Shown: piece after piece, positions 27,830-57,538 of the stretch
Layout: every line of letters starts with the position of its first letter
Numbering within the stretch: the stretch's first letter is position 1
Assembly (NCBI GenBank): GCA_036507075.1
Contig: DASXQR010000124.1
Location: 1-57,538 of the forward strand
Source of the DNA: Acidobacteriota bacterium
GTDB lineage: Bacteria; Acidobacteriota; UBA6911; JACQSX01
Length of the DNA stretch: 57,538 nt
Direction: 5' to 3'
The notes under the pieces: model-generated
Database searches by the model: none
What the model was told of the DNA's origin: nothing
What the model saw: the letters and a program-made list of their open reading frames with translations, nothing else
Position numbers and translations under genes: made by a program

Positions 27830-29059
27830 TCACTCGTAGTGCAGCGCCGCGGCAGGCTGTACTCTGGTGGCCAGCCAGCTCGGATAAAGGCCGCACAACA
27901 GAGTGAGCAAATAAATCAAGCCCGCTGACAGGGCCAGACTCGCAAAATAGACCTTGGAATCGATAAAACCGACCAGGTTGAGAAGAGGGAATTGTATGAT
28001 GACCACGACTCCGATTGCCAAACCAAGAGAAGTAATCACCAGCAATTCACCCAGGATTTGCCTGCGCACGTCGCTTGCTGTGGCGCCTTTTGCCCGCCGC
28101 AGCCCGATTTCCTTCGTCCTCTGCGTCACGTTCTGCCACAGCACACCGGTCAATCCCAAAGCCACCATCAGCATCAGAAAGGCTGCAATCAGACCCACGG
28201 CAATCACGGGAGCAAGCCGCAGCTTCAAAGATGATTCCCGTTTGTCGGCGAGCGGCTCGATTTCAAAGGACCAGTTGCGGGCCACTGCCTGTAGCTTGTT
28301 TATCAGTTTTTCTTCAAACGCACGCGTCGTACCCGGGTGCAGTCTTAACAGAAGGTTCCGGGGAGGTCGGTAACGTCGCACGTCAATCTTTGCGACATCA
28401 GCGCCGGCGGGAAGATCCAGGCTTTTGCGCACAAAACTGAAATTTTCCGGTGATGAGAATTCACCGTCCTGGCGATAGTCCGTGATCACGCCGACAACTT
28501 TCAGCGCCTCGGCCGGATTTGATGGCGTTCCGATGATCTTTCCCACGGAGTTATCCGTTCCAAAGAATTCGCGACTGAATTTCTGGTTGACCACTACGGT
28601 CTGCCAGTTGGCGCCATCGTCTTCTTTGCCAAACCAGCGCCCGTGAACTAATTGAAGATTCATCACATCTCTGAACGCATCACTGACCTCATTCACATCG
28701 CACCTGACCCGCTTGCCGCCGTTTTCATAGATAGTGGTGCTCCTGCCCATTCCATAGGGGATGGTGGTCGCTCCGGCCACACCTTCCACCTCATCGAAGC
28801 TTCGCGCAGCCAGTAGTAGCTGCTTCGTAGTCTCGACCTGTTCCGCTGTGAAGTAATCATCCGATCGTTGCTTAACGTCAATGGAAACGTGCCACACGTT
28901 CTGATACGAAAAGCCCAAAGGACGCCGATAATTCTCCCCGTAATAAATGCCCAGCGCAGCGACGACAAAGAGCACGAGAAAGGAAAAAAAGATCTCAATC
29001 ATGACCAGCAGGTTGGTTCTTCTTCTGTTCCAAACCAGCTTCAGCAAATGCTTGATCAT
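27830..29059 (-). CDS. ABC transporter permease (MacB/FtsX-like)
   Basis: MIKHLLKLVWNRRR start overlapping the upstream stop (ATGA); QRTKEIGLRRAKGA; YPSWLATRVQPAAALHYE. Confidence 0.92.
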   Translation of the reverse strand: MIKHLLKLVWNRRRTNLLVMIEIFFSFLVLFVVAALGIYYGENYRRPLGFSYQNVWHVSIDVKQRSDDYFTAEQVETTKQLLLAARSFDEVEGVAGATTIPYGMGRSTTIYENGGKRVRCDVNEVSDAFRDVMNLQLVHGRWFGKEDDGANWQTVVVNQKFSREFFGTDNSVGKIIGTPSNPAEALKVVGVITDYRQDGEFSSPENFSFVRKSLDLPAGADVAKIDVRRYRPPRNLLLRLHPGTTRAFEEKLINKLQAVARNWSFEIEPLADKRESSLKLRLAPVIAVGLIAAFLMLMVALGLTGVLWQNVTQRTKEIGLRRAKGATASDVRRQILGELLVITSLGLAIGVVVIIQFPLLNLVGFIDSKVYFASLALSAGLIYLLTLLCGLYPSWLATRVQPAAALHYE

Positions 29060-30300
29060 CGCGATGCTCCTTTCAACGCCTCGACGGGATTCAGTCGTGA
29101 CATCCTCCACGCCGGGTAGACCCCTGAGAACAGTCCGAAAAATACGGCCACCAGCACTCCGTACGCAAAGATTCGGTAATTGATGTGAAATTCGGCGTAT
29201 GGAATCAAGCCACTCTGACTGATTGCCTGCAGCACGCCGATGGCCAGCACAAAGCCAATGGCGGCTCCCAGCAGCGTCAACAGCACGTTTTCCACGATGA
29301 ACTGGCCAACCAGCGTCCATGAAGAAGCGCCGAACGCCTTCCGCACGCCGATTTCTGAAGCGCGCTCCATAATGCGGCTGATGTTTATGTTGATCAGGTT
29401 CACAGTCGGCAGCAGCATGAAAAGGATGGCGGCGATCAGGATGGATGCCAGCAGCCTGCCGGCATGACTTTCTTCGTCCCTTCGACCGCTGAAAAACATG
29501 CGTGATACGGCCTCGAAAAAAGTATCGGTCGAGGAAAAAACCTGACTGAACGTGGTCGGATCTGTCATTTCTACGTGTCCCATGCGGGAGCGAAACTCAT
29601 CTTTGATCATTTGAAAATCATTGCGACTGCGCGCGAGTACGATCGCCATAAAACCGCCTACCAGCTCCGAGCGATAGGAATCGGTCTTAGCGGTACTGAT
29701 CGGTACCCAGATATCCGAAAACGGCACAATACGAAAAATGGGAACATTGGACACGACTCCCACCACGCGGAATCTCTGGCCGTCGACTTCAATTGTCTTG
29801 CCGACAGCCTTGGCGTTCCCGAATAACCGCGTACGTGTCGCTTCGTTGATGACCGCCACGAAGTTGGCGTTCTTCTCATCTTCTACTGTAAAGGGGCCTC
29901 CCTCCAGGAATTGAAATTTCAGGATTTGCCAGTATTCGCCGTCTGTGCGTTTCAGGAAAGACTTGACCTTTTCTCCTTTTATGAACGAGTAGCCAAAACC
30001 CGGCTCAGAGAGGATCGAGTACTTTTCAACCCTGGGAAGGTTGCGGCCGTAGTGGTCAAGGAGTCTGTACCCTGCGTCGCCACTGCGACTCGCCCTCGGG
30101 CCCCACATGCTGGCAAAATAAATCCCGAGCGTTCGATCCAGGTTTACCTCCGGCGGCATGATGCCGAAGATGTGGTCAAAGAAAGCGGTGGCCACCATCA
30201 GAACCACCAGCGTAAAGCTGATGGCAAACAGGCTGATGAAGGTAAAGAATTTCCGCCTTAGAAATACTTTGATGGCGATCTTTAGATAATTTTTCAGCAT
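29056..30300 (-). CDS. ABC transporter permease (MacB/FtsX-like)
   Basis: MLKNYLKIAIK, ERASEIGVRKAFGA, YPAWRMSRLNPVEALKG; GGGAG RBS. Confidence 0.92.
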   Translation of the reverse strand: MLKNYLKIAIKVFLRRKFFTFISLFAISFTLVVLMVATAFFDHIFGIMPPEVNLDRTLGIYFASMWGPRASRSGDAGYRLLDHYGRNLPRVEKYSILSEPGFGYSFIKGEKVKSFLKRTDGEYWQILKFQFLEGGPFTVEDEKNANFVAVINEATRTRLFGNAKAVGKTIEVDGQRFRVVGVVSNVPIFRIVPFSDIWVPISTAKTDSYRSELVGGFMAIVLARSRNDFQMIKDEFRSRMGHVEMTDPTTFSQVFSSTDTFFEAVSRMFFSGRRDEESHAGRLLASILIAAILFMLLPTVNLININISRIMERASEIGVRKAFGASSWTLVGQFIVENVLLTLLGAAIGFVLAIGVLQAISQSGLIPYAEFHINYRIFAYGVLVAVFFGLFSGVYPAWRMSRLNPVEALKGASR

Positions 30301-43814: not shown

Positions 43815-44495
43815 ATGAATCCAGCACGACTAGCTGTCTGTCTGGTGTCGGGCGGAATGGATAGTTGCGTTACGGCGGCAATTGCGGCCCGCGAAAACGA
43901 GGCGCTCGCCTTTTTTCACGCCAGTTATGGGCAAAGAACGGAGAATCGCGAGCTGCGAGCGTTTCATAACATTGGAGACTTTTATGCCGTCTCGCTACGA
44001 CTGGCCTGCAGCCTGGCCCATCTGTCGCGCATCGGCGGATCCGCTCTCACCGATCCAAATATTCCTCTTCCGGAAGCAAAGCTGCATCGAACCGAGATTC
44101 CTGCTTCATACGTTCCGTTTCGAAACGCCAACATGTTGAGTGCCGCCATCGCCTGGAGCGAGGTACTGCACGCCCCGCGAATCTACGTCGGCGCCGTGGA
44201 GGAAGACAGTTCCGGCTATCCTGACTGCAGAGAAGAATTCTTCCAGGCGTTCCAGAAGGCGGCCAATCTGGGAACCCGACCTGAGACCCAAATTGAAATC
44301 CGCACTCCGTTGATCCATATGACCAAAGCGGAAATCGTGAAGAAGGGAGTGGGGCTTTCCGCGCCCCTGCACCTTTCCTGGTCCTGCTACCAGGGAGAAG
44401 ACCTGGCTTGCGGCCAATGTGACAGCTGCCTGCTGCGATTAAAAGGATTCCGCGAGGCGGGCATTCCCGATCCGATTCCGTACGGGCGTGAGTAG
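43815..44495 (+). CDS. queC: 7-cyano-7-deazaguanine synthase
   Basis: VSGGMDS, SYGQR, GGSALT, YVPFRN, GYPDCR, SWSCY, CGQCDSCLLR. Confidence 0.97.
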   Translation: MNPARLAVCLVSGGMDSCVTAAIAARENEALAFFHASYGQRTENRELRAFHNIGDFYAVSLRLACSLAHLSRIGGSALTDPNIPLPEAKLHRTEIPASYVPFRNANMLSAAIAWSEVLHAPRIYVGAVEEDSSGYPDCREEFFQAFQKAANLGTRPETQIEIRTPLIHMTKAEIVKKGVGLSAPLHLSWSCYQGEDLACGQCDSCLLRLKGFREAGIPDPIPYGRE

Positions 44496-44723
44496 AGATT
44501 GAGGGATGGAGGGATGGAGGGATGGAGGGATGGAGCGACGGAGATTGAAGTACTGAAAAACTGAAGCACTGTGAGACCGTTGGCTGCCTGTAGAAGAGAC
44601 AGTCGCAGCGCTCTATCTCTTCATGCCTCCATCCCTCAATCCCTCCATGCCTCCATCCCTCAATCCCTCTTTCCCTCCATCCCTCCATCCCTCCATCCCT
44701 CCATCCCTCTGCCCCTCTGTCCC
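44494..44723. repeat. Inverted octamer array with conserved core, copy 2
   Basis: (GGAGGGAT)n - core 44568-44614 - (ATCCCTCC)n fills the gap between two convergent stop codons. Confidence 0.92.
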
Positions 44724-44724
44724 G

Positions 44725-44925
44725 TCAGGCGTTCGGCGTTCGCTCCAGATGGCCGTCGATGGAAAGCAGGATGAAGTATATGGCCGTCAGAAATCCAAGC
44801 GCAGCCACAAACAGCCAGGCACGCGACGTGATAAAGATTCGATTATCCTGGATAATCGAAACAAAGCCGATCAGGGCCGCAACAAAAGACCCGAGTACCG
44901 CAACGTAGGAAATGTTCTTGAGCAT
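44725..44925 (-). CDS. Small hypothetical membrane protein (66 aa, 2 TM)
   Basis: ATG preceded by AAGGGGG; two hydrophobic segments; occupies otherwise empty space. Confidence 0.65.
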   Translation of the reverse strand: MLKNISYVAVLGSFVAALIGFVSIIQDNRIFITSRAWLFVAALGFLTAIYFILLSIDGHLERTPNA

Positions 44926-44949
44926 GGAAACCCCCTTACAAGTGGACAG

Positions 44950-44996
44950 TTTTCAGAAGCAAGATTTACCAGTTTTTCAGAAGCAAGATTTACCAG
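44950..44996. repeat. Tandem duplication (23 bp, 24-nt period)
   Basis: TTTTCAGAAGCAAGATTTACCAG at 44950-44972 and 44974-44996. Confidence 0.85.
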
Positions 44997-45022
44997 CCGG
45001 GTCGAATCGACCCGCACGGGCA

Positions 45023-46408
45023 TCAGTGATTTCGGTGCCCGGCTCGCTCCCGCGGGGACAAATCCACCTTCCAAAAGGGGCTGAAGCTGTCAAGATTGGT
45101 CTTTGCAAGACCCGGGCTTCCGCTCGAATTCTCCGAATCCAGTGTGAAGCTGAGAAAAGCGATGCACATTTCATCGCTTGTGTTCTCGCCCCAGCCCACG
45201 TCCTTGGGTGGATTGTTGGGATTGTTGGGATTAGTGGCAGAATTATCGAAGTGCGCTATCAGATCGAAACGCGTCCCTGCCTTGAGCGCAATCGGCTCTT
45301 GATAAAAATAGGTGGACTGCCAATGGAAATCCCAATCGGGGACGTCCGCCAGACAGACCTTCTTTCCATCCAGGGTCGTGGCTGTTACGCTCATCGTCCG
45401 CCCCAAAAGATGCATGTGGGGAGTGATCGCATGCAGGTGGACATCATAGGGCAGGAACTTAAATGAAGCCGTCACAGGATGGTTTTTCGCACCTGCAGGG
45501 ATTTTGAAATTCAGGTTGATAAGGGGCAGCGTCAACAGTGTTTTCTGCACCGGCTTTTGGGCAAAGTAAAGACCGATTTCCGTTCGATCGGCTTCGACCA
45601 CGCCGCTGCGCGCGCTGTAGTGCACCTGCATTACGATGCGTGAGTTCTTGGGCAGAAACAGGCCGATGCCGTCAGGTAAAAACTTCGTCTTGTTTCCCGG
45701 CGCCCATCCACCCAAGGCATACAAAAAGGTGAATCCGGGACCCCCAAAGCACGTGTAGCCGGGGCCGGGATCCGCATTGTCCAGACGCACCGATTCCATG
45801 GTGGTATCGATGAACAGGAGCACGTGATGAACCATGGCGCGGCTTCCGGGAAGAATTTCAACCGCGCTGACATAGCGGTTCTCTCCCAGATTGGTGGGAA
45901 ATACGAAACACCGATAGACATCCCCCTTGGAAAAGTTGGGCGTCATCGGTTCTTCCATTTTGAAAGTCATGTCCGGCTGGCCCAGAGACCAACCGCTGGC
46001 AAACTTGAGCGGGGGCGGCAAATCGCCTGGGTTGCCCTCGGGAGCTTCCGAGTCCACCCACTGGCGAATGGCGTGCAGTTGCTCGCCCGTCAGCGAAGGA
46101 TCATCCTGAAAACCGCCGCACTCTGAATTAACATGCCAGGGAGGCATTATTCGATCTGTGGTAATGCTCCGGATCTGATTACGCCGGTTGTAGGCGTCCT
46201 GGTAGGTGATAAGCGAAAAAGGTGCGATATCGCCCGGATGGTGGCAGGACTGGCAGCGGTCCTGCAGGATACGGACGATCTGTTTGTTAAAAGTCACGGG
46301 TTCTTCGTTTTCCACAGTAACCGGCCGCCGGAAGGAACCCTGCTGCGCCCACGCAAGCATGCCCGCAATTATTGAAAAAGCTGCAATAATCCCCGCCTTT
46401 GCCTTCAT
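45023..46408 (-). CDS. Exported type II copper monooxygenase-like (PHM/DBH fold) protein with N-terminal c-type heme motif
   Basis: Signal peptide; CQSCH..MPPW; VHHVLL and QVHY (CuH-like); PHMHLLG and DEMC (CuM-like); GGGAG RBS and TATAAT upstream. Confidence 0.82.
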   Translation of the reverse strand: MKAKAGIIAAFSIIAGMLAWAQQGSFRRPVTVENEEPVTFNKQIVRILQDRCQSCHHPGDIAPFSLITYQDAYNRRNQIRSITTDRIMPPWHVNSECGGFQDDPSLTGEQLHAIRQWVDSEAPEGNPGDLPPPLKFASGWSLGQPDMTFKMEEPMTPNFSKGDVYRCFVFPTNLGENRYVSAVEILPGSRAMVHHVLLFIDTTMESVRLDNADPGPGYTCFGGPGFTFLYALGGWAPGNKTKFLPDGIGLFLPKNSRIVMQVHYSARSGVVEADRTEIGLYFAQKPVQKTLLTLPLINLNFKIPAGAKNHPVTASFKFLPYDVHLHAITPHMHLLGRTMSVTATTLDGKKVCLADVPDWDFHWQSTYFYQEPIALKAGTRFDLIAHFDNSATNPNNPNNPPKDVGWGENTSDEMCIAFLSFTLDSENSSGSPGLAKTNLDSFSPFWKVDLSPRERAGHRNH

Positions 46409-46483
46409 GGAATTACTCCCCGCTCTGGCCATTATACGAGTGCCGGCGGCCGTTGGGTGCACGAAAAGTAACCACCACGATTC

Positions 46484-46606
46484 AGGGATGGAGAGATCGA
46501 GGGATGGAGAGATGGTCGAGATAGCCCGCTCCGCTCTTTACGTTTTTCCCTCCATCCCTCCGTCCCTCCATCCCTCAATCCCTCTATCCCTCTATCCCTC
46601 CATCCC
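46484..46606. repeat. Inverted octamer array, copy 3 (different core)
   Basis: AGGGATGGAGAGATCGAGGGATGG...(ATCCCTCC/ATCCCTCT)n; overlaps the last codons and stop of trpD. Confidence 0.85.
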
Positions 46607-47686
46607 ACTCTCACCCGCAGCCTTCTGGCTGAATGAGACCAGCGCATCGAGCTTCCCCCTGGCCGTGCCTGTATCGATCGCCTCGGCGGCAAGCCGTACG
46701 CCCTCCTTAAAATCGCGGGCGCGATTTGCCGCCACGATTGCGGCGGCCGCGTTCATCAGGACGATGTCGCGCCTGGCTCCCTTCTCTCCATGAAGAATGC
46801 GAACAACCAGATCGGCGTTTTCGCGCGCCGTGCCACCCTTCAGATCTTTGACGTCCGACCTGGCCAGAGAAAAGTCCTCCGGAGTTACTTGATACGTCCG
46901 GACGCTGCCATCGGAGACTTCCGATACCCGGGTGGTGCCGGTGTTGGAGATTTCGTCCAATCCGTCAGCCCCATGAACCACAAAAGCCCGCTGCGTTCCC
47001 AATTCCTTCAGCACATGCGCCAGAGGCTCGGTCAACTGCGGAGCATACACTCCCACCACCTGTGAAGAAGCGCCGGCCGGGTTGGTAAGCGGGCCGAGCA
47101 TATTGAACACGGTTCGGATCTTCATTTCGCGGCGCACCGGCATGACCGCTTTCATGGCGCGGTGAAGCAGGGGCGCATACAGAAACCCGATCCCTACCTC
47201 GTCAATGCAGCGAGCCACCAGCCATGGCGCAAGCTGAATGTTGATTCCCAGGGCTTCCACCACGTCAGCGCTGCCGCACAAACTGGAAACGGAACGGTTG
47301 CCATGCTTGGCTACGCGCAGGCCCGCTCCCGCCGCCACAAATGCCGTGGCGGTGGAGATGTTGAAAGTATTGCTGGCATCTCCGCCCGTTCCGCAGGTAT
47401 CAACCAGCATCTCGCGGCCGGTTCCGGCGATGGCAGCACCCACTTCCTTATGCGGCCAGATGGGAGCGGCCCGGCCGCGAATTACCTGCGCAAAGCCGAT
47501 GAGTTCTTCTACCGTTTCCCCTTTAATTCGCAGCGCGGTCAAAAAGGCCGCGATTTGCACGTCGTGGGCGTTGCCCGACATGATGTCTTCCATAACCGAC
47601 TGGGCTTCCTCACGGCTTAGACTTTGACGGTCCACCAACTTGCGGAGCGCAGCTTCAACCAGGGCGGAGTGAACGGAATCTGCCAT
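46592..47686 (-). CDS. trpD: Anthranilate phosphoribosyltransferase (stand-alone copy)
   Basis: DTCGTGGD, FNISTA, KHGNRSVSSLCGSADV, RTVFNMLGPLTNP, GLDEIS; start approximate. Confidence 0.95.
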   Translation of the reverse strand: MADSVHSALVEAALRKLVDRQSLSREEAQSVMEDIMSGNAHDVQIAAFLTALRIKGETVEELIGFAQVIRGRAAPIWPHKEVGAAIAGTGREMLVDTCGTGGDASNTFNISTATAFVAAGAGLRVAKHGNRSVSSLCGSADVVEALGINIQLAPWLVARCIDEVGIGFLYAPLLHRAMKAVMPVRREMKIRTVFNMLGPLTNPAGASSQVVGVYAPQLTEPLAHVLKELGTQRAFVVHGADGLDEISNTGTTRVSEVSDGSVRTYQVTPEDFSLARSDVKDLKGGTARENADLVVRILHGEKGARRDIVLMNAAAAIVAANRARDFKEGVRLAAEAIDTGTARGKLDALVSFSQKAAGESGMEG

Positions 47687-47737
47687 GGGGAGTGATGTTA
47701 CCACCCGCGAGGGGGAGAGCGGGAGCATCGTGAGATC

Positions 47738-47839
47738 CGAATGCCGAATGCGGAATGGGGAATGCGGAATGAAGCGCGATTTTGCTTCAGATTTGGACAA
47801 TTAAGTTAGTATGTTCCGCATTCTGCATTCCGCATTCGG
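47738..47839. repeat. Inverted heptamer array (GCGGAAT / ATTCCGC)
   Basis: CCGAATGCCGAATGCGGAATGGGGAATGCGGAAT ... TTCCGCATTCTGCATTCCGCATTCGG. Confidence 0.9.
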
Positions 47840-47859
47840 AAGTCGGCGAGGCTTCCCCA

Positions 47860-47889
47860 TTGACTTCAAAACGCGCCCTGTAGTAGCTT
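47860..47889 (+). promoter_or_regulatory. Candidate sigma70 promoter of the his/trp/aro operon
   Basis: TTGACT (47860-47865) - 18 nt - TAGCTT (47884-47889) just upstream of the leader ORF. Confidence 0.55.
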
Positions 47890-47901
47890 TACCCCGTCAC
47901 G

Positions 47902-47979
47902 ATGAAACCGAGCGGGAAGCAGTTCTACAACTGGCACTGGTATTACGGATCGATCAAGGTCCGCCCGCTGCCTTTGTAG
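47902..47979 (+). CDS. Attenuator leader peptide [25 protein letters not shown]
   Basis: ATG..TAG 25-codon ORF with F-Y-N-W-H-W-Y-Y cluster at 47923-47946, followed by antiterminator and terminator stems, upstream of his/trp/aro genes. Confidence 0.8.
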
Positions 47980-48005
47980 ACTTTTCAGCTTCCTGGAAAA
48001 TTTTC

Positions 48006-48038
48006 AAGGCCGTGGGCAAGTCCCACGGCCTTTTTTTT
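48006..48038 (+). terminator. Intrinsic terminator (attenuator) ahead of hisF
   Basis: AAGGCCGTGGG-CAAGT-CCCACGGCC-TTTTTTTT ending 12 nt before the hisF ATG. Confidence 0.88.
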
Positions 48039-48050
48039 GTTTCAATAAAG

Positions 48051-48816
<766 letters not shown>

Positions 48817-48827
<11 letters not shown>

Positions 48828-49431
48828 AGACTTCCTCGTCCCTACAATCGCCCAGGACTCGGAAAGCGGCCAGGTGCTGATGCTGGCCTATTCGAACCGG
48901 GAGAGCCTCCACAAAACCTTTAAAACCGGCGAGGCACATTATTGGAGTCGTTCGCGAAACTCGTTGTGGAAGAAAGGGGAGACATCGGGTAATACCCAGC
49001 AACTCATCACAGTCGCCCTGGATTGCGATGCCGATGCGCTTCTGTTTCGCGTCAAGCCCAGCGGCCCGGCGTGCCACACCGGCGCAGTCTCATGCTTTTT
49101 CACCAGGGTTGAAGACGCCCAAATCACGATCGAAAGCCGCCAGTGGTACGATGATTTCTTTTCACAACTTTTCGAGCTGATCGAAAGGCGCAAAATCGAG
49201 AAACCGGAAAACTCGTACACCAGGCGTCTGCTGTCGGAAGGTGTGGACCGCATTGCCAGGAAAATAGCGGAGGAGTCGGGCGAAGTGATCATCGCGGCAA
49301 AGAATGGAGCAAAGGCGGAACTACTGTGGGAATCGGCCGATTTGATTTACCACCTGATGGTCCTGCTCGCCAGCCAGAATCTGACGTGGAACCAGGTGAG
49401 CGAAGAGCTGCAGAAGCGGAGCGAAAAATGA
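48817..49431 (+). CDS. hisIE: Bifunctional phosphoribosyl-AMP cyclohydrolase / phosphoribosyl-ATP pyrophosphatase
   Basis: [51 protein letters not shown]. Confidence 0.96.
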
Positions 49432-50945
49432 AGCCTGATTTTGACCAGTTTCTGAGAGCCGCGGAGGAGGCAAACGTAGTGCCGGTTTATGACTTCGTGA
49501 TGGCCGATCTGCTCACGCCCGTATCAGCATTTCTGAAAATGAGGGGCCATCATCGAAACTGCTGTCTTCTGGAGAGCGTCGAGGGCGGAGAAAAGATCGC
49601 GCGCTATTCCTTCCTGGCATTCGATCCCATTGTGCGCATTGAAACCAAAAACGGTTCAACCGTGGTGCGCCGCGGCCCGGAGAGCGCCGCGCAGCACGCA
49701 GCAGGGGATTTCTGGCGGCTTCTGGAGGAGGAGTTCAGCCGCTATCGAACCTTCCATTCACCCGATCTGCCACCATTTACCGGCGGCGGTGTGGGCTTTT
49801 TTTCTTATGACGTGGTGCGAACTCTGGAAAGAATCCCGGCGCATCCGCACGACGACCTGCGCCTGCCAGACGCTTCCATCGCGCTGTTTCCCACCGTTCT
49901 CGCCTTTGATCATCTCAAGCATCGCATCGTCATCATCGAAAATGTTTTCACTTCACAAAAATCGAAGCAGCAGTTGCGGGACCTCTATGACCGGGCCGCC
50001 GTCCGTGCCGAAACCGTAAAGCAGCAACTGCTCGAGCCGCTCGGTCCGGAGGAACATCTGGAATTCAACCAGCCGGATCCGCTTCCACTGGAATCCAACA
50101 CCACGCGCGAGAAGTTTATCGAGTCGGTTGGGAGGGCAAAGGAACACATCGCGCAGGGCGACATTTTCCAGGTGGTCCTTTCGCAGCGCTTCCACACGCA
50201 TTTCAACGGCGACACTTTCGACATTTACCGGTCTCTCCGTTTCGTGAACCCTTCGCCTTACATGTTTTACCTCGACTTTGACGACATCCACGTGGTGGGA
50301 GCTTCGCCCGAGATGCTGGTGAAGGTCCAGGACCGAAGACTTGAATACCGGCCGATCGCAGGCACGCGAAGACGGGGGCGAGACGACGAAGACGACCGCC
50401 GCCTGGAGGAAGAGCTGAAAAACGACGAGAAAGAACGCGCCGAGCACGTGATGCTGGTCGATCTGGGGAGAAACGATCTCGGCAGGGTTTCCGAATTCGG
50501 ATCAGTTAAGGTCGAAGACCTGATGTTTGTCGAGAAGTACTCGCACGTAATGCATCTGGTTTCGTCGCTTTCCGGAATTCTGCGGCCGGACATGACGCGA
50601 TTTGACGCCTTCCGGGCATGTTTCCCGGCGGGCACGGTGACAGGCGCTCCCAAGATTCGCGCCATGGAAATAATCAATCAGTTCGAGCCGACACAGCGCG
50701 GAATTTACGCGGGCAGTATCGCCTACCTGGATTTTTCCAGGAATCTGGATTCCTGCATCGCGCTGCGTACCATCGTGATTCAGGGAGAAAACATTTACGT
50801 ACAGGCGGGCGCCGGGATTGTGGCGGATTCGAATCCCGAATCGGAATACCAGGAGTGCCTGAGCAAGGCCCGCGCGCTGTGGAAGGCCATCGAACTGGTG
50901 CACTCAAGGCAACCGACGAGCACCTCGTCGGTTGGCGCTCCTTAG
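49428..50945 (+). CDS. trpE: Anthranilate synthase component I
   Basis: LLESVEGG, GDIFQVVLSQR, NPSPYM, ASPE, RPIAGTRRRG, AEHVMLVDLGRND, FPAGTVTGAPK, GAGIVADS; ATGA coupling to hisIE. Confidence 0.96.
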   Translation: MKPDFDQFLRAAEEANVVPVYDFVMADLLTPVSAFLKMRGHHRNCCLLESVEGGEKIARYSFLAFDPIVRIETKNGSTVVRRGPESAAQHAAGDFWRLLEEEFSRYRTFHSPDLPPFTGGGVGFFSYDVVRTLERIPAHPHDDLRLPDASIALFPTVLAFDHLKHRIVIIENVFTSQKSKQQLRDLYDRAAVRAETVKQQLLEPLGPEEHLEFNQPDPLPLESNTTREKFIESVGRAKEHIAQGDIFQVVLSQRFHTHFNGDTFDIYRSLRFVNPSPYMFYLDFDDIHVVGASPEMLVKVQDRRLEYRPIAGTRRRGRDDEDDRRLEEELKNDEKERAEHVMLVDLGRNDLGRVSEFGSVKVEDLMFVEKYSHVMHLVSSLSGILRPDMTRFDAFRACFPAGTVTGAPKIRAMEIINQFEPTQRGIYAGSIAYLDFSRNLDSCIALRTIVIQGENIYVQAGAGIVADSNPESEYQECLSKARALWKAIELVHSRQPTSTSSVGAP

Positions 50946-50949
50946 AACA

Positions 50950-51200
50950 GGTTGGCGAGTTACGGGTTCTCGGGTTGCGGGTTGACGGGTTGACGGGTTG
51001 ACGGGTTGCGAGTTGACGGGTGGCGGCGTGGCGGGTGGCGGGTTGGGCGGGTTTGCCAGCGGATTTGAGAAATTCAAAACCGCAAGCAGAGGAATTGAGG
51101 AACCCGGAACCCGGAACCCGAAAACTGTTTTTATGAACCCGCAACTCAAAAACCCGAAACTGTTTTTATGAACTCGTAACTATGAAACTCGAAAACTGTT
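50950..51200. repeat. Inverted 7/8-mer array (CGGGTTG / AACCCG) between trpE and trpG
   Basis: G-rich arm 50950-51054, C-rich arm 51101-51192, with three copies of AAACTGTTTTTATGAA. Confidence 0.88.
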
Positions 51201-51203
51201 TTT

Positions 51204-51773
51204 ATGAAAATCCTAGTCATCGATAACTATGATTCGTTCACATTCAACCTGGTGCAGCTCTTCGGTCTGATCGAGAAGAACATAGAAGTGGTACGCAACG
51301 ATGCGCTTGACGTGGAAGGAATCCGAAGCCGCAAGCCGGATGCGCTGGTGATTTCTCCGGGCCCGGGCCGGCCAGCCGAGGCAGGGATCTGCAACCGGGC
51401 GATTGCGGCTCTGCACGCAGAGCTGCCGATTCTCGGGGTTTGCCTGGGCCATCAGTGCATCGGCGAGGTCTTCGGTGGAAAAATCATCAGGGCGCCTTCG
51501 CTGATGCACGGAAAAACTTCACCTGTCTTCCATGAGAACGGAGGGCTGATGAGGGGCTTGCCCTCCCCGGTGCAGGCAACCCGCTATCACTCGCTGGTGG
51601 TGGATCGGGACGCCTTTCCCGAAGCGCTGAAAGTGGATGCCGCCACAAGAGATGGCGTAATTATGGCCGTGCATCATAAAATTTACCCGGTATTTGGGAT
51701 CCAGTTCCATCCCGAATCGGTGATGACGCAACAAGGCGAAACGATCATCCGGAACTTCCTTGACCATTGTTGA
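51204..51773 (+). CDS. trpG: Anthranilate synthase component II (glutamine amidotransferase)
   Basis: IDNYDSFTFNL, ISPGPG, GVCLGHQ, RYHSL, QFHPES. Confidence 0.95.
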   Translation: MKILVIDNYDSFTFNLVQLFGLIEKNIEVVRNDALDVEGIRSRKPDALVISPGPGRPAEAGICNRAIAALHAELPILGVCLGHQCIGEVFGGKIIRAPSLMHGKTSPVFHENGGLMRGLPSPVQATRYHSLVVDRDAFPEALKVDAATRDGVIMAVHHKIYPVFGIQFHPESVMTQQGETIIRNFLDHC

Positions 51774-51776
51774 TTT

Positions 51777-52790
51777 ATGCTGCAGGACTTTTTGAAACGC
51801 CTGATCGTGCGCAAGGACCTCACTTCGGCGGAAGCCGAAGAAATGATGCGTTACATGCTCGACGAAAGGACGCCGGATTCTCAAATTGCCGCCCTTTTGA
51901 TTGCCCTGATTCACAAGGGAGAGATTGTCGACGAGATCGTGGGCTTTGCGCGCGTCATACGGGATATGTATGAGCCCATCCATTCCAATAATCCTCAACT
52001 GCTGGATATCGCCGGAACGGGCGGTGACCGCGATACCTTCAACATCTCCACCGCGGCCGCTTTCGTCATTTCGGGAGCGGGGCTTCCGGTGGCAAAGCAT
52101 GGCAATTATGCAGTCACTTCCTCGTGCGGCACAGCAGAAGTGCTGAATGAACTGGGAATTCGCATCGACACGCCGACCCACGTCGCCCAGCGCTGCCTGG
52201 ACGAAGTGGGGATCTGCTTTGTATGCGAGCCGCTGTTTCACGCGCACATGAGTCGCATCACGCGCATCCGGAAGGAAATCGGCGTGCGAACCGTCTTCAA
52301 CCTGCTCGGCCCGCTTACCAATCCGGCTCGGGCGACGCATCATCTGGTCGGAGTGTTCCATGAAAGCCTTACTGACATGCTTGCCCAGGCTCTGCGGCAG
52401 CTCGGATGCGAGCACGCCTGGGTGGTGCATGGAGCCGACGGGCTGGACGAAATCACCCTGAATGGGACGACACGGGTTACCGAGGTAAAGAACGGCGGCA
52501 TCAACACATTCTATCTGGCGCCCGCCGAGATCAACGGCGCACCCCGCAAAGCGGACAACGTGGCAGGGGGCGATGCGAACCACAACGCCGCCATGCTGAT
52601 GGACGTGCTGGAGGGCAGGAAAGACGCCCCGCGCATGATCGTGGCCATTAATGCCGCCGCCGGTCTTCACATTGCCGGCCGCGCTCCGGATCTTGGCGCG
52701 GGGCTGCAGATGGCGCTCGAATCGATCGACAGTGGAGCGGCGCTGGCCAAACTCGAGCAAGTGCGCGAATTCACGCAGAGGACGCAGTGA
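51777..52790 (+). CDS. trpD: Anthranilate phosphoribosyltransferase (operon copy)
   Basis: [45 protein letters not shown]. Confidence 0.95.
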
Positions 52791-54817
52791 CCATCCTGGA
52801 AACAATCGTACGCAGGAAACGCGCCGACTTGGCGTCCGGCATCAAAACGGGTGAGCCGCTGGCCCGAAAGCATACTCCTCAGTCCCTTCTGGCGGAGCTT
52901 CGTCGGCGCGATCTTTCTGTGATCGCGGAACTCAAGAAGAAATCGCCGTCCAAAGGACTAATCCGGCGGGACTACAGTCCGGCTGAAATCGCCCGCGGTT
53001 ACGCGTCCGCCGGCGCGTTTGCCCTTTCGGTCCTGACGGAAGAGAACTTTTTCAGCGGCTCGCTGGAAGATTTGCGCGCGGTGCGCACGGCCGTAGATCT
53101 GCCGCTGCTGCGCAAGGACTTTATTGTTTCACTCCAACAATTGAAAGAGAGCGCCATCCATGGGGCCGACATGGTGCTCCTGATCGCCGCCTGCTTGAAT
53201 GAATGGGAACTGCCTGAAATGATCGCGGCGGCAAAATCAGAAGGCCTGTTGCCGCTCGTGGAGGTACACACCGAGGCCGAAGCAGACACGGCCATCACCG
53301 CCGGCGCGGATCTGATCGGAGTCAATAACCGCGACCTGAGGTCCTTTGAAGTCGACCTTCAGACCGGCATCCGCCTGGCGCGCTACATCCGCAGCACCTT
53401 CGGCGCTGACATCGTCCTGGTAGCCGAGAGCGGTATCCAGTCGGCCCGCGATATCGAATTACTTGCCAGCGCAGGTTACGGAACTTTCCTCATTGGGGAG
53501 TCCTTGATGCGCGCTGAAGATCCAGGCAAGGCCCTTCTGGAACTGCTGCAAGAGCTTGGCAATGGAGCCGCCGACGTCCCGTACAGTGCCTTAACTCCGG
53601 GGCCGGAACCCTGCAAGGGGCAGCCCGCAGGCAAGGTCACTTCGCAACCGGACGCGGAGGGCCATTTCGGCGTCTACGGAGGCAAATACGTTCCGGAAAC
53701 GCTGATGGCGCCGCTGGAAGAACTGGAGACGGCGTACCACCACTTTTCCAAAGATGCGGAATTCCAATCGGAGCTGGACGCGTTGCTCTCGCAGTATGTG
53801 GGGCGTCCCACGCCTCTTACTTTTGCTGCAAGACTCTCACAGGATCTGGGGGCGCGGATTTATTTTAAGCGTGAAGATCTCTGCCACACCGGCGCCCACA
53901 AAATCAACAACGCGCTGGGCCAGGCATTGCTCGCAAAGAGAATGGGAAAGACGCGGATTGTTGCCGAGACCGGGGCCGGCCAGCATGGCGTAGCCACCGC
54001 CACTGTATGCGCGCTGCTTGGATTGCAATGCCGCGTCTACATGGGCGTCGAAGACATGGGACGCCAGGAACTGAATGTTTTCCGCATGAAACTCCTTGGC
54101 GCCGAGGTGGTTCCGGTCGATTCCGGCACACGTACTCTGAAAGACGCTATTAACGAGACGATGCGGGATTGGGTCACCAATGTAGGCGCCACACACTATC
54201 TGCTCGGTTCTGTGCTTGGCCCCCACCCCTACCCTCAGATGGTGCGTGATTTCCAGAGCGTCATCGGGCGGGAGGCCCGTCGGCAGGTCATGGAGCACGA
54301 ACAGCGTCTTCCCGATTATCTGATTGCCTGCGTGGGTGGGGGAAGTAATTCGCTGGGCCTGTTCTACGACTTTCTTGCGGAACCCGGGGTCGCCATGATC
54401 GGGGTCGAAGCCGGAGGACGCGGCAGGGGCCTGGGCGAACATGCCGCACGATTTGACGGCGGCAGGCCGGGCGTGCTGCACGGGTGTTACACGTACGTGC
54501 TGCAAAACAAAGAGGGCCAGATCTCGACGACCCACAGCGTAAGCGCCGGCTTGGATTACCCCGCCGTCGGACCGGAGCACTCACGGCTCCACGATGAAGG
54601 GCGGGTCCAGTTTACCAGCGCCACCGATGATGAGGCTCTCGAGGCCTGCAGGATATTGAGCCTGACCGAAGGACTGATCCCCGCGCTGGAAAGCGCGCAT
54701 GCCGTCGCCGAACTGCTGCGCAACCGTGACAAGTACCGGAACAGGCTGGTGATCGTCAACCTGTCGGGCAGAGGCGACAAGGACATGCCGACGATGCAGC
54801 GCCAACTTCGCTTCTAG
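52787..54817 (+). CDS. trpCB: Indole-3-glycerol phosphate synthase :: tryptophan synthase beta chain fusion
   Basis: N-terminal [39 protein letters not shown] (TrpC); C-terminal [50 protein letters not shown] (TrpB); one continuous frame from a GTG start. Confidence 0.93.
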
Positions 54818-54829
54818 GCAGACATGAAG

Positions 54830-54932
54830 GAGTTGCGGGTTTACGAGTTGCGAGTTACGGGTTTCGAGACAGGTAACTCGAAACTCGGTAACCCGAAACT
54901 CGTAACCCGGTAACTCGCTAACTCGAAACTCG
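54830..54932. repeat. Inverted heptamer array (CGAGTT/CGGGTT vs AACTCG/AACCCG) between trpB and trpA
   Basis: GAGTTGCGGGTTTACGAGTTGCGAGTTACGGGTTTCGAG ... AACTCGAAACTCGGTAACCCGAAACTCG. Confidence 0.88.
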
Positions 54933-54948
54933 ACACTAGACATTTTTT

Positions 54949-55746
54949 ATGACGTCCAGCCCGATAACTGAAGCTTTCGAAAGGTGCAGAGCCGAGCGCC
55001 GGCGGGCGTTTATTCCATTCATTGCTGCCGGCGATCCGAACCTGGAAGTCACCGCCAAAGCGCTGCAGGCGCTGGACCAGGCAGGTTCGGACGTGATTGA
55101 GCTCGGACTTCCCTTTTCCGATCCGATCGCCGACGGCCCGATCATCCAGGCAAGCTATCAAAGAGCGTTGGAGGGCGGAGTTGCGCTGCAGCAGACATTT
55201 GAGCTCCTTGAATCTCTCAAGCTTCGGGCTCCGGTGCTTCTTTTTACTTATCTCAATCCGGTGCTCCAGTATGGGCTGGAGCGGTTGGCGGAAAAAGCAA
55301 AGCGGATGGGAGTGTCGGGGCTTCTCGTGTCCGACCTGACACCGGAAGAAGCGAATCGCTATATGCACCCTTTACGCCGCAACTGGATTGATACCGTGTT
55401 CCTTGCGGCCCCCACCACCACGCCGAAGCGCATGGAGAAGATTTTAGGCTGCTGCACCGGTTTTTTGTACTTCATCGCCCGCACAGGAGTGACCGGGAAA
55501 CAGACCAATCTCGATGCCGGCGTTACCAACCAGATCAACTTGATCCGGAGTCGCTCGAAAATTCCGATTGCCATCGGTTTCGGAATGCGAACTCCTGAAG
55601 ACGTGCAAAAGGCTTCCCGCATCGGAGATGGCGTGGTAGTAGGCAGCGCCATTGTCGAGAAACTCCACGCACTGACACAACAGCCGGTATGGGAGGAAGA
55701 TTTTCGCAAGTACATCGCCGCGTTTGTACAGGCTACAAAGAATTGA
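54949..55746 (+). CDS. trpA: Tryptophan synthase alpha chain
   Basis: AGDP, IELGLPFSDPIADGPIIQ, TYLNP, LAAPTT, RTGVTG, IGFG, VVGSA. Confidence 0.97.
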   Translation: MTSSPITEAFERCRAERRRAFIPFIAAGDPNLEVTAKALQALDQAGSDVIELGLPFSDPIADGPIIQASYQRALEGGVALQQTFELLESLKLRAPVLLFTYLNPVLQYGLERLAEKAKRMGVSGLLVSDLTPEEANRYMHPLRRNWIDTVFLAAPTTTPKRMEKILGCCTGFLYFIARTGVTGKQTNLDAGVTNQINLIRSRSKIPIAIGFGMRTPEDVQKASRIGDGVVVGSAIVEKLHALTQQPVWEEDFRKYIAAFVQATKN

Positions 55747-55749
55747 GTT

Positions 55750-55834
55750 TTGAGCACGAATTTCACGAATTTCACGAATCTTCTTAATTAACTTCGTGTA
55801 ATTCGTGTAATTCGTGCTCAACATTCGTGCTCAA
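55750..55834. repeat. Inverted nonamer array (CACGAATTT / TAATTCGTG)
   Basis: TTGAGCACGAATTTCACGAATTTCACGAA ... TTCGTGTAATTCGTGTAATTCGTGCTCAA plus a duplicated terminal ATTCGTGCTCAA. Confidence 0.9.
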
Positions 55835-55838
55835 CCCT

Positions 55839-56117
55839 ATGGACATCACGGACTGGCGCAAGAAAATAGATGAGCTTGATTTGAAGCTGGTACAGTTGCT
55901 CAACGAGCGCACGCACTGTGCAGTGGAAATCGGCAAATTGAAGCGACAGCTTCAACAGCAACTCTATGACCCTGACCGGGAAGGGCAGGTTTTTGAAAAC
56001 GTGCAGCGAGCCAATCGGGGACCGCTCCGGCCCGACGCTGTGCAGCGTCTTTTCGAACGGATCATTGACGAAGCGCGCCGCGCCGCGAGACTGGCGATGG
56101 GAGAGGAAAAGACGTAA
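55839..56117 (+). CDS. aroQ: Chorismate mutase, type II (AroQ class)
   Basis: WRKKIDELDLKLVQLLNER..EIGKLK..YDPDRE..LFERIIDEAR. Confidence 0.9.
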   Translation: MDITDWRKKIDELDLKLVQLLNERTHCAVEIGKLKRQLQQQLYDPDREGQVFENVQRANRGPLRPDAVQRLFERIIDEARRAARLAMGEEKT

Positions 56118-56264
56118 GGGTTGCGGGTTAGCGGGTTAGCGAGTTGCGGGTTAGCGCGTTGCGAGTTGCGAGGGGCGAGGGGCAAGTTGCGAGGGGCGGA
56201 TTCGCGAATTCCAAATTCAAAATTATGCGAAACCCGTAACCCGAAACTCGGCAACTCGCCAACC
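56118..56264. repeat. Inverted heptamer array (GGGTTGC/GGGTTAGC vs AACCCG/AACTCG)
   Basis: Starts immediately after the chorismate mutase TAA; C-rich arm 56230-56264. Confidence 0.85.
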
Positions 56265-56285
56265 TAATTTGGAGACAGCGGAATC

Positions 56286-57296
56286 ATGGTGATCGTGATG
56301 CAGCGTGGCGCTTCCGAAGATCAAATCAGCGCCGTTATCAAGAGACTGACTGAAAAGGGATTTGATGTGCACCGCTCCACGGGCGCCGAGCGAACCATAC
56401 TGGGCGCGGTGGGCGGGAAGGTCGTAGACACGCGTGATTACGAGCTGCTCGGTGGAGTAAAGGAAGTCATCCGCATTACCCACCCCTACAAACTGAGCAG
56501 CCGCACTTTCAAACCCGAGGGTACGCGCATCCGCGTGGGGGATGTTGAAGTCGGCGGCGACAAGGTCACCGTCATTGCCGGCCCCTGCTCGGTTGAGAGC
56601 CGCGACCAGATTCAGCGCACTGCCGAGGCACTGTCCACGCAGGGAGTAAGAATGCTGCGCGGCGGCGCGTTCAAGCCGCGCACGTCGCCCTACAGCTTTC
56701 AGGGTCTGGGTGAGGAGGGATTGAAATACATGCGTGAAACGGCGGACCGCTTTGGGATGAAGGTGGTTTCGGAAATCATGGACCACAACGATCTGCCGAT
56801 GATGCTCAACTATGTGGATGTTTTCCAGGTGGGCGCGCGCAACATGCAGAACTATACCATCCTGAAGGAGCTTGGGAAGATCAAGAGCCCTGTCCTGCTC
56901 AAGCGGGGAATGTCGGCAACGATCGAGGACATGCTCTTGTCGGCAGAATACGTCATGTCGGGCGGCAATCATGAAGTGATTCTGTGCGAGCGGGGTATCC
57001 GAACGTTTGAGACATACACCCGGAATACCCTTGACCTTTCAGCCATCCCCGTTGTGAAGAAACTGAGCCATCTTCCCATTATCGTCGACCCCAGCCACGG
57101 GACCGGCCTTCGCGACAAAGTGATTCCGATGGCGCGCGCCGCGGTTGCGGCGGGAGCCGACGGTCTGCTGGTGGAAGTTCATTGCGATCCGGAGAACGCG
57201 CTCTCCGACGGGGCGCAGTCCTTATTCCCCGAGCAATTCGCCGACTTGATGCGCCAATTGAAACTGATCGGCGAAGCCGTGGGAAGGAAAATCTAG
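56286..57296 (+). CDS. aroF: DAHP synthase, class I-beta with N-terminal ferredoxin-like regulatory domain
   Basis: IAGPCSVE, RGGAFKPRTSPYSFQG, GARNMQN, LKRG, CERGIRTF, DPSH, EVH..ALSDG. Confidence 0.96.
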   Translation: MVIVMQRGASEDQISAVIKRLTEKGFDVHRSTGAERTILGAVGGKVVDTRDYELLGGVKEVIRITHPYKLSSRTFKPEGTRIRVGDVEVGGDKVTVIAGPCSVESRDQIQRTAEALSTQGVRMLRGGAFKPRTSPYSFQGLGEEGLKYMRETADRFGMKVVSEIMDHNDLPMMLNYVDVFQVGARNMQNYTILKELGKIKSPVLLKRGMSATIEDMLLSAEYVMSGGNHEVILCERGIRTFETYTRNTLDLSAIPVVKKLSHLPIIVDPSHGTGLRDKVIPMARAAVAAGADGLLVEVHCDPENALSDGAQSLFPEQFADLMRQLKLIGEAVGRKI

Positions 57297-57300
57297 GTTT

Positions 57301-57538
57301 GGTTCGTTGTCCGTAGTTCGCGTTCCGGGTTGGCGGGTTGCGGGTTGGCGGGTTGCGGGTTGGCGGGTTGCTGAGAGGTTCAGAGTTGTCGAATTAGAGA
57401 TCGAAAATTCAAAATTGGTGAAACAACTCCAATTCTTAATGACAACTTTATTTGCTCAAAACTGTAACCCGAAATTCGTAATCCGCCAACCCGCAATCCG
57501 CCAACCCGCAATCCGCCAACCCGCAACCCGCCAACCCG
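57301..57538. repeat. Inverted 7+8-mer array (GGGTTGGCGGGTTGC)n / (CCGCCAACCCGCAA)n, cut by the window end
   Basis: G-rich arm 57327-57370, C-rich arm 57465-57538, 15-nt higher-order unit. Confidence 0.88.

Follow-up and report, generated by a model that had tools for sequence, protein, structure and literature searches.

In enterobacteria one leader peptide can serve several amino acids, as with thrL (Thr and Ile) and ilvL (Ile, Leu and Val), and in Bacillus subtilis the aro-trp-his supraoperon holds aromatic, trp and a his-related gene in one unit under attenuation through the TRAP protein. The mechanism of the classical trp attenuator is summarised in the passages of PMC11802643 and PMC1183508 that deal with it. 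Leader-peptide attenuation is mostly known from the Proteobacteria and Actinobacteria, and here we describe an element of this type in a poorly sampled lineage. The window analysed, 57,538 nucleotides (nt) long, is one whole contig (DASXQR010000124.1) of an Acidobacteriota genome (GCA_036507075.1, hereafter G000; 6.1-Mb assembly, 95.7% complete), and the element is a compact leader of about 140 nt in front of hisF. Like enterobacterial trpL, it combines a short upstream open reading frame (uORF) whose two Trp codons overlap region 1, helices 1:2, 2:3 and 3:4 that exclude one another, and an intrinsic terminator just before the first gene. Very probably it is a trpL-kind, ribosome-mediated transcription attenuator, which likely controls hisF-hisIE-trpEGD(CB)A-chorismate mutase-DAHP synthase, mainly via charged tRNA-Trp.

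The locus holds sequence features by which a classical attenuator is recognised, namely a uORF predicted to be translatable, clustered Trp codons with trp genes behind them, an intrinsic terminator, and an antiterminator and anti-antiterminator laid over the regulatory codons. The initial annotation had proposed the uORF with its run of F, Y, W or H at 7 of 8 codons, the terminator, and an antiterminator with 11 of 12 bases paired and one G-U, and all of these were confirmed in the sequence (Table 1); the uORF sits below the 60-residue floor of the open reading frame (ORF) list and is for this reason not listed there. Its two Trp codons, W11 (47932-47934) and W13 (47938-47940), are both invariant across three orthologs. 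The terminator stem (48006-48032), 26 bases behind the uORF stop, has 11 pairs (8 of them G-C), a loop of 5, the tail TTTTTTGTTT and a hairpin energy of -20.7 kcal/mol; it is the sole terminator-like site in 47600-48200 and the only strong terminator in 45000-57538. The antiterminator pairs GCCCGCTGCCTT (47963-47974) with AAGGCCGTGGGC (48006-48017) and is also the pairing of minimum free energy (MFE).

With Trp in good supply, the ribosome would reach the TAG codon and sit over region 2, leaving the terminator to fold and end transcription about 12 nt before hisF. When Trp-tRNA is scarce, a ribosome stalled at codons 11-13 would mask region 1, and region 2 would pair with region 3 while region 4 has yet to be transcribed, allowing the polymerase to continue past the terminator site. 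F8, Y9, H12, Y14 and Y15 lie within the same stall window, and termination would probably also be relieved to some extent if His, Tyr or Phe ran short. Folding of 47895-48045 with and without ribosome masks had been put forward in the initial annotation as a check, and the outcome agrees with the mechanism. The region folds with z = -5.48, and 0/200 shuffles fold as well. In all three orthologs the unmasked fold gives helix 1:2 plus the terminator; when the ribosomal A site is placed on codons 11-14 of a transcript that stops at region 3, the MFE structure is the antiterminator 2:3; and when the A site is at the stop codon, the ribosome covers region 2 and leaves region 3 free.

The initial annotation had also suggested looking in relatives for a conserved aromatic- and His-rich uORF with its stems, and this was found in G001 (same family as G000) and G005 (a different family of the same order). 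When 41 related genomes were searched at the DNA level, G001 alone matched in the leader part. When the 400 bases 5′ of hisF were read at 28 loci in 25 genomes, an aromatic-rich uORF followed by a terminator was present at three of them, in G000, G001 and G005; elsewhere hisF mostly comes straight after another coding region, and some of the upstream stretches read as the ends of hisA or hisH. The leader peptide of G001, MNSSGKLNQNWHWYNATGGARPLPF, and that of G005, MMKRYPNPYFWYWHKPSGGLRPLP, which has an ATGATG start 14 nt after the shared -10-like box, are each followed by a terminator and then by hisF-hisIE. G001 keeps the whole gene row together with the divergent trpD paralog; in G005 the contig ends behind hisIE, and trpE stands at the start of a different one. 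At 50-75% HisF identity the uORF keeps its frame, length and Trp codons and the leader its alternative helices, and a promoter-like TTGACT, 17-18 nt, TAG(C/T)TT is common to the three genomes, whose leaders align from TTGACT to the T-run. A model built from the leader (R1) reaches 122-140 bits in the three orthologs only, among 137 genomes of the class. The leader is present in every genome of the order where these genes were found; G002, G003 and G004, of the same family (93, 63 and 77% complete), yielded no hisF or trpE at E <= 1e-40 and no R1 match, and they neither support nor contradict this distribution.

Farther afield, contig scans based on HisF (80 metagenome and 46 genome loci) returned nothing closer than 67% HisF identity; in those 126 loci, seven had an ORF passing the aromatic filter, with a run of at least 6 T within 100 nt of the stop in none, and the architecture was found in 0/126. 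HisF matches occurred in 251/401 genomes of the phylum, the 8 closest HisF loci were read, and the nearest named relatives of this HisF are Pyrinomonadaceae and other Acidobacteriota metagenome-assembled genomes. HisF of G000 is 62-66% identical to that of the lineages of G151 and G419, from other families of the phylum, versus about 55-61% to most of its own class; in G151 (contig C11) and G419 (contig C139) hisF-hisIE lies a few kb upstream of trpE, and no leader peptide was seen there. The G000 locus itself recurs in an independent soil DNA run, which carries 47825-48574 with a single difference at 48101, outside the leader.

Conservation extends to the competing helices. Helix 1:2 joins the Trp-codon stretch UGGCAYUGG (47932-47940) to CC(A/G)CUGCC in the P-L-P codons; it is kept in the three orthologs, with standard pairs in 3/3 sequences at alignment columns 37-44 x 69-76. 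The protector drawn in the initial annotation, AGCGGG:CCCGCT (47911-47916 with 47964-47969), could form in G000 and G001, but G005 has no equivalent of it, and the conserved helix is a different one. RNAalifold on the three orthologs gives 42 pairs, 8 with compensatory changes, and takes in helices 1:2 and 3:4. For the antiterminator, 31/32 cells across the orthologs hold standard pairs, against 25-47% in slid controls, and two pairs are changed on both sides; in G005 one G-to-A in the terminator 5′ arm is matched by a C-to-U in each of the two strands that pair with it. For the antiterminator, covariation is consistent with this pairing rather than proven.

Genome-wide, a 7-of-8 run of F/Y/W/H occurs in 2 of 65,195 ATG ORFs of 8-40 codons, and only this uORF precedes a terminator; the other, on contig C228, has neither a strict terminator nor a relevant downstream gene. 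A strict perfect-stem scan found 115 terminators in the genome with 170 adjoining short ORFs, among which this uORF ranks top with 7, the next best having 5. The leader element is not a product of chance. As far as sequence comparison can tell, it is a real, conserved attenuator of the classical type, whose mixed form is unusual and whose lineage is new.

Several points weigh against this interpretation. The close orthologs number only three, and with so few the covariation of the antiterminator is not significant (86/500 shuffles reach it). For G000 and G001, a stalled ribosome does not remove the terminator from the full-length MFE structure, and antitermination therefore has to be a kinetic outcome, as the classical model also has it; for G005, an A site on codons 11-13 preserves the antiterminator, and one on codon 14 gives the terminator. 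A consensus promoter scan of 47600-48200 returned 0 promoter-like sites, and no Shine-Dalgarno sequence is visible upstream of the uORF ATG. We infer that the TTGACT/TAGCTT pair is a promoter; its -10-like box ends 12-14 nt before the uORF ATG in the orthologs (12 nt in G000), and because of this short distance and the missing Shine-Dalgarno sequence the leader mRNA would be near-leaderless. The only RNA run with any share consists of contigs, in which parts of hisF are covered, mostly at 90-95% likeness, and the leader is not covered. Control of the distal genes by the leader is what we infer from strand, synteny and the absence of a strong internal terminator, and the operon gaps of 80-258 nt are filled with repeat hairpins that could hide promoters or processing sites.

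The element is also one member of a broader set of aromatic leaders. R1 matches of 28-34 bits are mostly leader peptides with the terminator GGCCGTGG...CCACGGCC plus T-run (Table 1); those in G089 and G055 are terminators beside which neither a leader nor an aromatic gene was read. The 151-genome phylum sample added G021 (MRNNSPLWRWWCN) and G181 (MNNLFTNSWWWHSSDKGGERPPG, with WWWH), both before trpE, and in G181, which belongs to another class, R1 matches over its full length (34.6 bits). Operons behind these related leaders, as read by Pfam and tblastn, are trpEGD(C/F)BA, often with chorismate mutase and DAHP synthase at the end, and no hisF or hisIE was found by tblastn in the stretches fetched behind them. 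These leaders share with that of G000 the terminator and the placement of region 2 over the final codons, with peptides that end in RP.P or PP, but differ from it in having no hisF-hisIE behind and in their codon mixes, which are W only, W plus H, or F/Y/H. By its predicted anatomy the G000 element is a trp-type leader of a phylum-wide kind, and in its order hisF-hisIE intervene between leader and trpE; within this aromatic leader set, the codon mix varies with the operon behind. Two further observations concern the set itself. In G015, G066 and G067 the leaders, rich in F, Y and H (in G015 also WW) and with the same terminator type, stand before two-gene chorismate mutase-DAHP synthase operons; and G007, of another family of the class, offers a second, independent case in which a his-related gene heads a trp operon, behind an F/Y/W leader.

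The initial annotation had gone further and read the locus as one leader attenuator of a mixed his-trp-aro operon that integrates four amino acids. The attenuator stands, by its anatomy and its conservation in two relatives; the integration of four amino acids is not established, W-x-W being the only invariant element. In such a selected integrator His12 and the Tyr and Phe codons would be truly regulatory, the operon would open whenever any one of His, Trp, Tyr or Phe ran short, and a single 25-codon peptide would act as a four-signal OR gate; we regard this as possible but doubtful. In its favour, one His codon and at least one Tyr codon stand beside the Trp codons in 3/3 orthologs although their places are swapped (W-H-W-Y in G000 and G001 versus W-Y-W-H in G005, which needs two C/U transitions), and 11/21 non-Trp residues are F, Y or H when three codons on either side of and those between the Trp codons are counted in the three orthologs. 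Codons 8-15 all lie where a stalled ribosome frees region 2. Moreover, the only hisF and hisIE of the genome lie behind this terminator and the other his genes on another contig, so that under a switch that senses Trp alone, abundant Trp would throttle the synthesis of His. That remaining his cluster, on contig C152, holds hisG and hisA, both family-tested, and four ORFs between them named by position only; hisF and hisIE are not there.

Other observations pull the other way. Only W11 and W13 are invariant across the three orthologs, and Phe is missing from the control region of G001 (codon classes kept: W 3/3, H 3/3, Y 3/3, F 2/3). His is a single codon, one transition separates Tyr from His, and in G000 and G001 helix 1:2 includes the CAY codon (GGCA:UGCC), which could therefore have been retained for the RNA structure. 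Leaders behind which tblastn found no hisF or hisIE carry His codons too, before trpE in G181 and G095 and before chorismate mutase-DAHP synthase in G015, G066 and G067, whereas G007, with its his-related gene, has no His codon in the control region. The presence of a codon is also no proof of sensing: in the account of Corynebacterium glutamicum aroR given in PMC11802643, this leader (Phe-Tyr-Phe) answered to Phe and not to Tyr. Since the only hisF and hisIE of the genome would stand under a Trp-centred switch, the question is whether one interleaved His codon gives cross-pathway control. Tentatively, the mixed codons could make a single switch that couples two pathways drawing on phosphoribosyl pyrophosphate, the His codon between the Trp codons freeing the only hisF and hisIE from Trp-driven termination, and the Tyr and Phe codons doing likewise for chorismate mutase and DAHP synthase.

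It is very unlikely that the leader is instead an arrest peptide like TnaC, with a nascent chain (W ... RPLP-stop) that senses free tryptophan and stalls the ribosome at the stop. TnaC, as the part of PMC8429421 concerned with it describes, has W12 and D16, ends in Pro24 directly before the stop, and acts on Rho-dependent termination; the leaders here resemble it in their 24-25 residues, Trp at 11 and 13 and Pro at 24, and that of G005 ends in Pro24-stop as TnaC does (PMC8429421). However, position 16 is G, A or P and not Asp, G000 and G001 carry an extra residue after Pro24 (Pro is last in 1/3), and termination is intrinsic and not Rho-dependent, in an operon that is biosynthetic. A stall at the stop would moreover cover region 2 and favour termination, and helices 1:2 and 2:3 account for the conservation of RPLP.

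The Rfam match to suhB/mmgR (RF00519; cmscan 43.3 bits versus a gathering score of 41, at 47963-48045) could mean that a stand-alone small RNA lies by chance before hisF, which we hold to be highly improbable. The match begins within the conserved uORF and rests on the terminator and a CUUCCU stretch that is not kept in G001 and G005, whose regions reach no Rfam gathering score; most likely it is a false positive driven by the terminator. The suhB/mmgR family is known from Alphaproteobacteria. That a chance ORF merely adjoins an ordinary terminator, or that the terminator only insulates hisF from the divergent promoter region, is hardly credible, for although the uORF lacks a Shine-Dalgarno sequence and a promoter called by the scan, its run is unique before a terminator in 6.1 Mb, its frame, length, Trp codons and helices are conserved, and the terminator, whose upstream neighbour is transcribed divergently, does not close any gene.

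Known regulators of other families were tried and rejected. Trp_leader (RF00513) was not listed at E up to 10 in 47850-48060 or at E up to 1 in 44000-57538; for a T-box or other riboswitch there was no Rfam match, the best cis-regulatory rows being far below gathering; and TRAP (TrpBP, PF02081) had no match in G000 at its 95.7% completeness, with the B. subtilis positive control matched.

Features of the attenuator, the genes around it and the related leaders are collected in Table 1, in which gene names follow NCBIfam profiles with their cut-offs unless said otherwise. These profiles bore out the downstream gene identities given in the initial annotation, with chorismate mutase just below its cut-off, and the start of hisF was moved from 48052 to 48051.

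Table 1. Features of the leader, its gene row and related leaders (positions are those of the window unless a contig is named)
Feature	Position	Strand	Details
Putative promoter	47860..47889	+	TTGACT 47860-47865, 18-nt spacer, TAGCTT 47884-47889; kept in 3-way alignment
Leader-peptide uORF	47902..47979	+	ATG 47902, 25 codons, TAG 47977-47979; orthologous uORFs in G001 (25 codons) and G005 (24 codons)
Control codons F8 Y9 N10 W11 H12 W13 Y14 Y15	47923..47946	+	7/8 are F/Y/W/H
Region 1 core, UGGCACUGG	47932..47940	+	pairs with region 2 (anti-antiterminator)
Region 2, GCCCGCUGCCUU	47963..47974	+	codons R-P-L-P; alternative partners: region 1, or terminator 5′ arm (antiterminator)
Intrinsic terminator	48006..48038	+	5′ arm 48006-48016 (region 3), loop 48017-48021, 3′ arm 48022-48032 (region 4), T-run 48031-48038
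hisF	48051..48827	+	TIGR00735, 357 bits (cut-off 294.55); single copy in assembly
hisIE	48772..49431	+	NF002747, 260.4 bits (cut-off 187); single copy in assembly; ORF-list start unrefined
trpE	49326..50945	+	TIGR00564, 567.4 bits (cut-off 517.7); single copy; ORF-list start probably too early
trpG	51204..51773	+	TIGR00566, 210.8 bits (cut-off 121.05)
trpD	51777..52790	+	TIGR01245, 377.1 bits
trpC-trpB fusion, 676 residues	52787..54817	+	NF001377 residues 1-255, 269.5 bits (cut-off 260); TIGR00263 residues 292-672, 610.4 bits
trpA	54949..55746	+	TIGR00262, 248.8 bits
AroQ-type chorismate mutase	55827..56117	+	TIGR01807, E 9.7e-19, 67.4 bits (just below cut-off 69.55); relatives' orthologs match Pfam CM_2
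DAHP synthase (aroF-type, B. subtilis class)	56286..57296	+	NF006421, 492.1 bits (cut-off 335)
Second trpD paralog (anthranilate phosphoribosyltransferase)	46592..47800	-	TIGR01245, 431.8 bits (cut-off 199.05); likely true start ATG 47686
Repeat arrays	47737-47846; 50950-51208; 54830-54932; 55755-55835; 56118-56263; 57322-57538; 44497-44709; 46547-46606		
Leaders before trpE			G101 MKIDRSYWRS; G051 MRVSILLWWPS; G095 MKVNSSLWHWWY (WHWWY); G069 MMIDGLFWRGWRG; G077 MAIFSFLRYGWRF
Leaders before chorismate mutase-DAHP synthase			G015 MGLAHYFYFYWWHNSNRPPV; G066 MGFTRIFYLFYHGYRNKLCPPI; G067 MGLLRSVYLFFYRHRNKFCPPI
Leader before histidinol-phosphatase-like PHP gene, then trpEGDC	G007, C49 ~4869-5004	-	MALSAFGFGYWYWTMPPRRFVHR; PHP gene NF004981, 274.9 bits

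One of the trpD paralogs lies within the operon and the other is divergent from the leader promoter, and the pair is kept in G001; the two kinds are 43-46% identical (tblastn, G000 proteins on G001). trpF is without a copy in the operon, and the only phosphoribosylanthranilate isomerase (trpF) match of G000 is on another contig (C23:14953-15561). Nearly all intergenic gaps of the operon carry 7-8-nt tandem repeats arranged as inverted pairs that form long hairpins (for example CCGAATGCGGAATG... opposite ...CATTCCGCATTCGG, with 33-nt arms, 88% complementary). Rfam scores these as plant miRNA look-alikes; they may be mRNA stabilisers like repetitive extragenic palindromic (REP) elements, or processing sites. 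A similar array, of CGGATTG units, lies between terminator and hisF in G001, and in one DNA run the depth over 47722-47782 peaked at 663 versus about 10 nearby, as expected for a repeat common to many contigs. Elsewhere in G000, on the minus strand of contig C225 (about 29040-29210 in reverse-complement coordinates), there is a second candidate leader-peptide attenuator, with a Thr-rich peptide MSNAATTIRMTTASAMWMTTTRRRTVGRSAGVAPT, an 11-bp terminator and a T9 run; the genes behind it, read from their N-termini, are likely homoserine dehydrogenase and then threonine synthase.

The initial annotation knew of no described case like this one. A full-text literature search, which did not cover subscription journals, found no leader with His plus aromatic codons and no trp attenuator of Acidobacteria, which are mentioned only in leader-gene distance statistics in the part of PMC4833913 that concerns them; a mixed aromatic leader has, however, already been published, aroR of C. 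glutamicum (described in a section of PMC11802643). Like the G000 leader, aroR sets mixed aromatic codons (Phe-Tyr-Phe) ahead of a DAHP synthase operon, before aroF (PMC11802643, citing Neshat et al. 2014), but as described in that section it contains neither Trp nor His codons, is without his or trp genes, and responds to Phe limitation and not to Tyr. The trp attenuators of Corynebacterium and Streptomyces, in the portion of PMC1262725 that treats them, are like that of G000 in their two or three UGG codons and GC-rich terminators, and their GGCC-type complementary triple of antiterminator and terminator has its G000 counterpart in CUGCC / GGCCGUGG / CCACGGCC; unlike it, they head trp-only operons and are described there as Trp leaders only.

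In comparison with enterobacterial trpL, the G000 leader has no RF00513 match, belongs to another phylum, probably has a near-leaderless uORF and interleaves its Trp codons with His and Tyr codons, and its gene row differs from the trpL operon in placing hisF and hisIE first and chorismate mutase and DAHP synthase last. The amino acids of thrL and ilvL come from one connected pathway family, whereas the G000 leader would join histidine with the aromatics. The B. subtilis supraoperon relies on the TRAP protein, for which no gene was found in G000, whereas attenuation here would proceed through ribosome stalling on the leader peptide.

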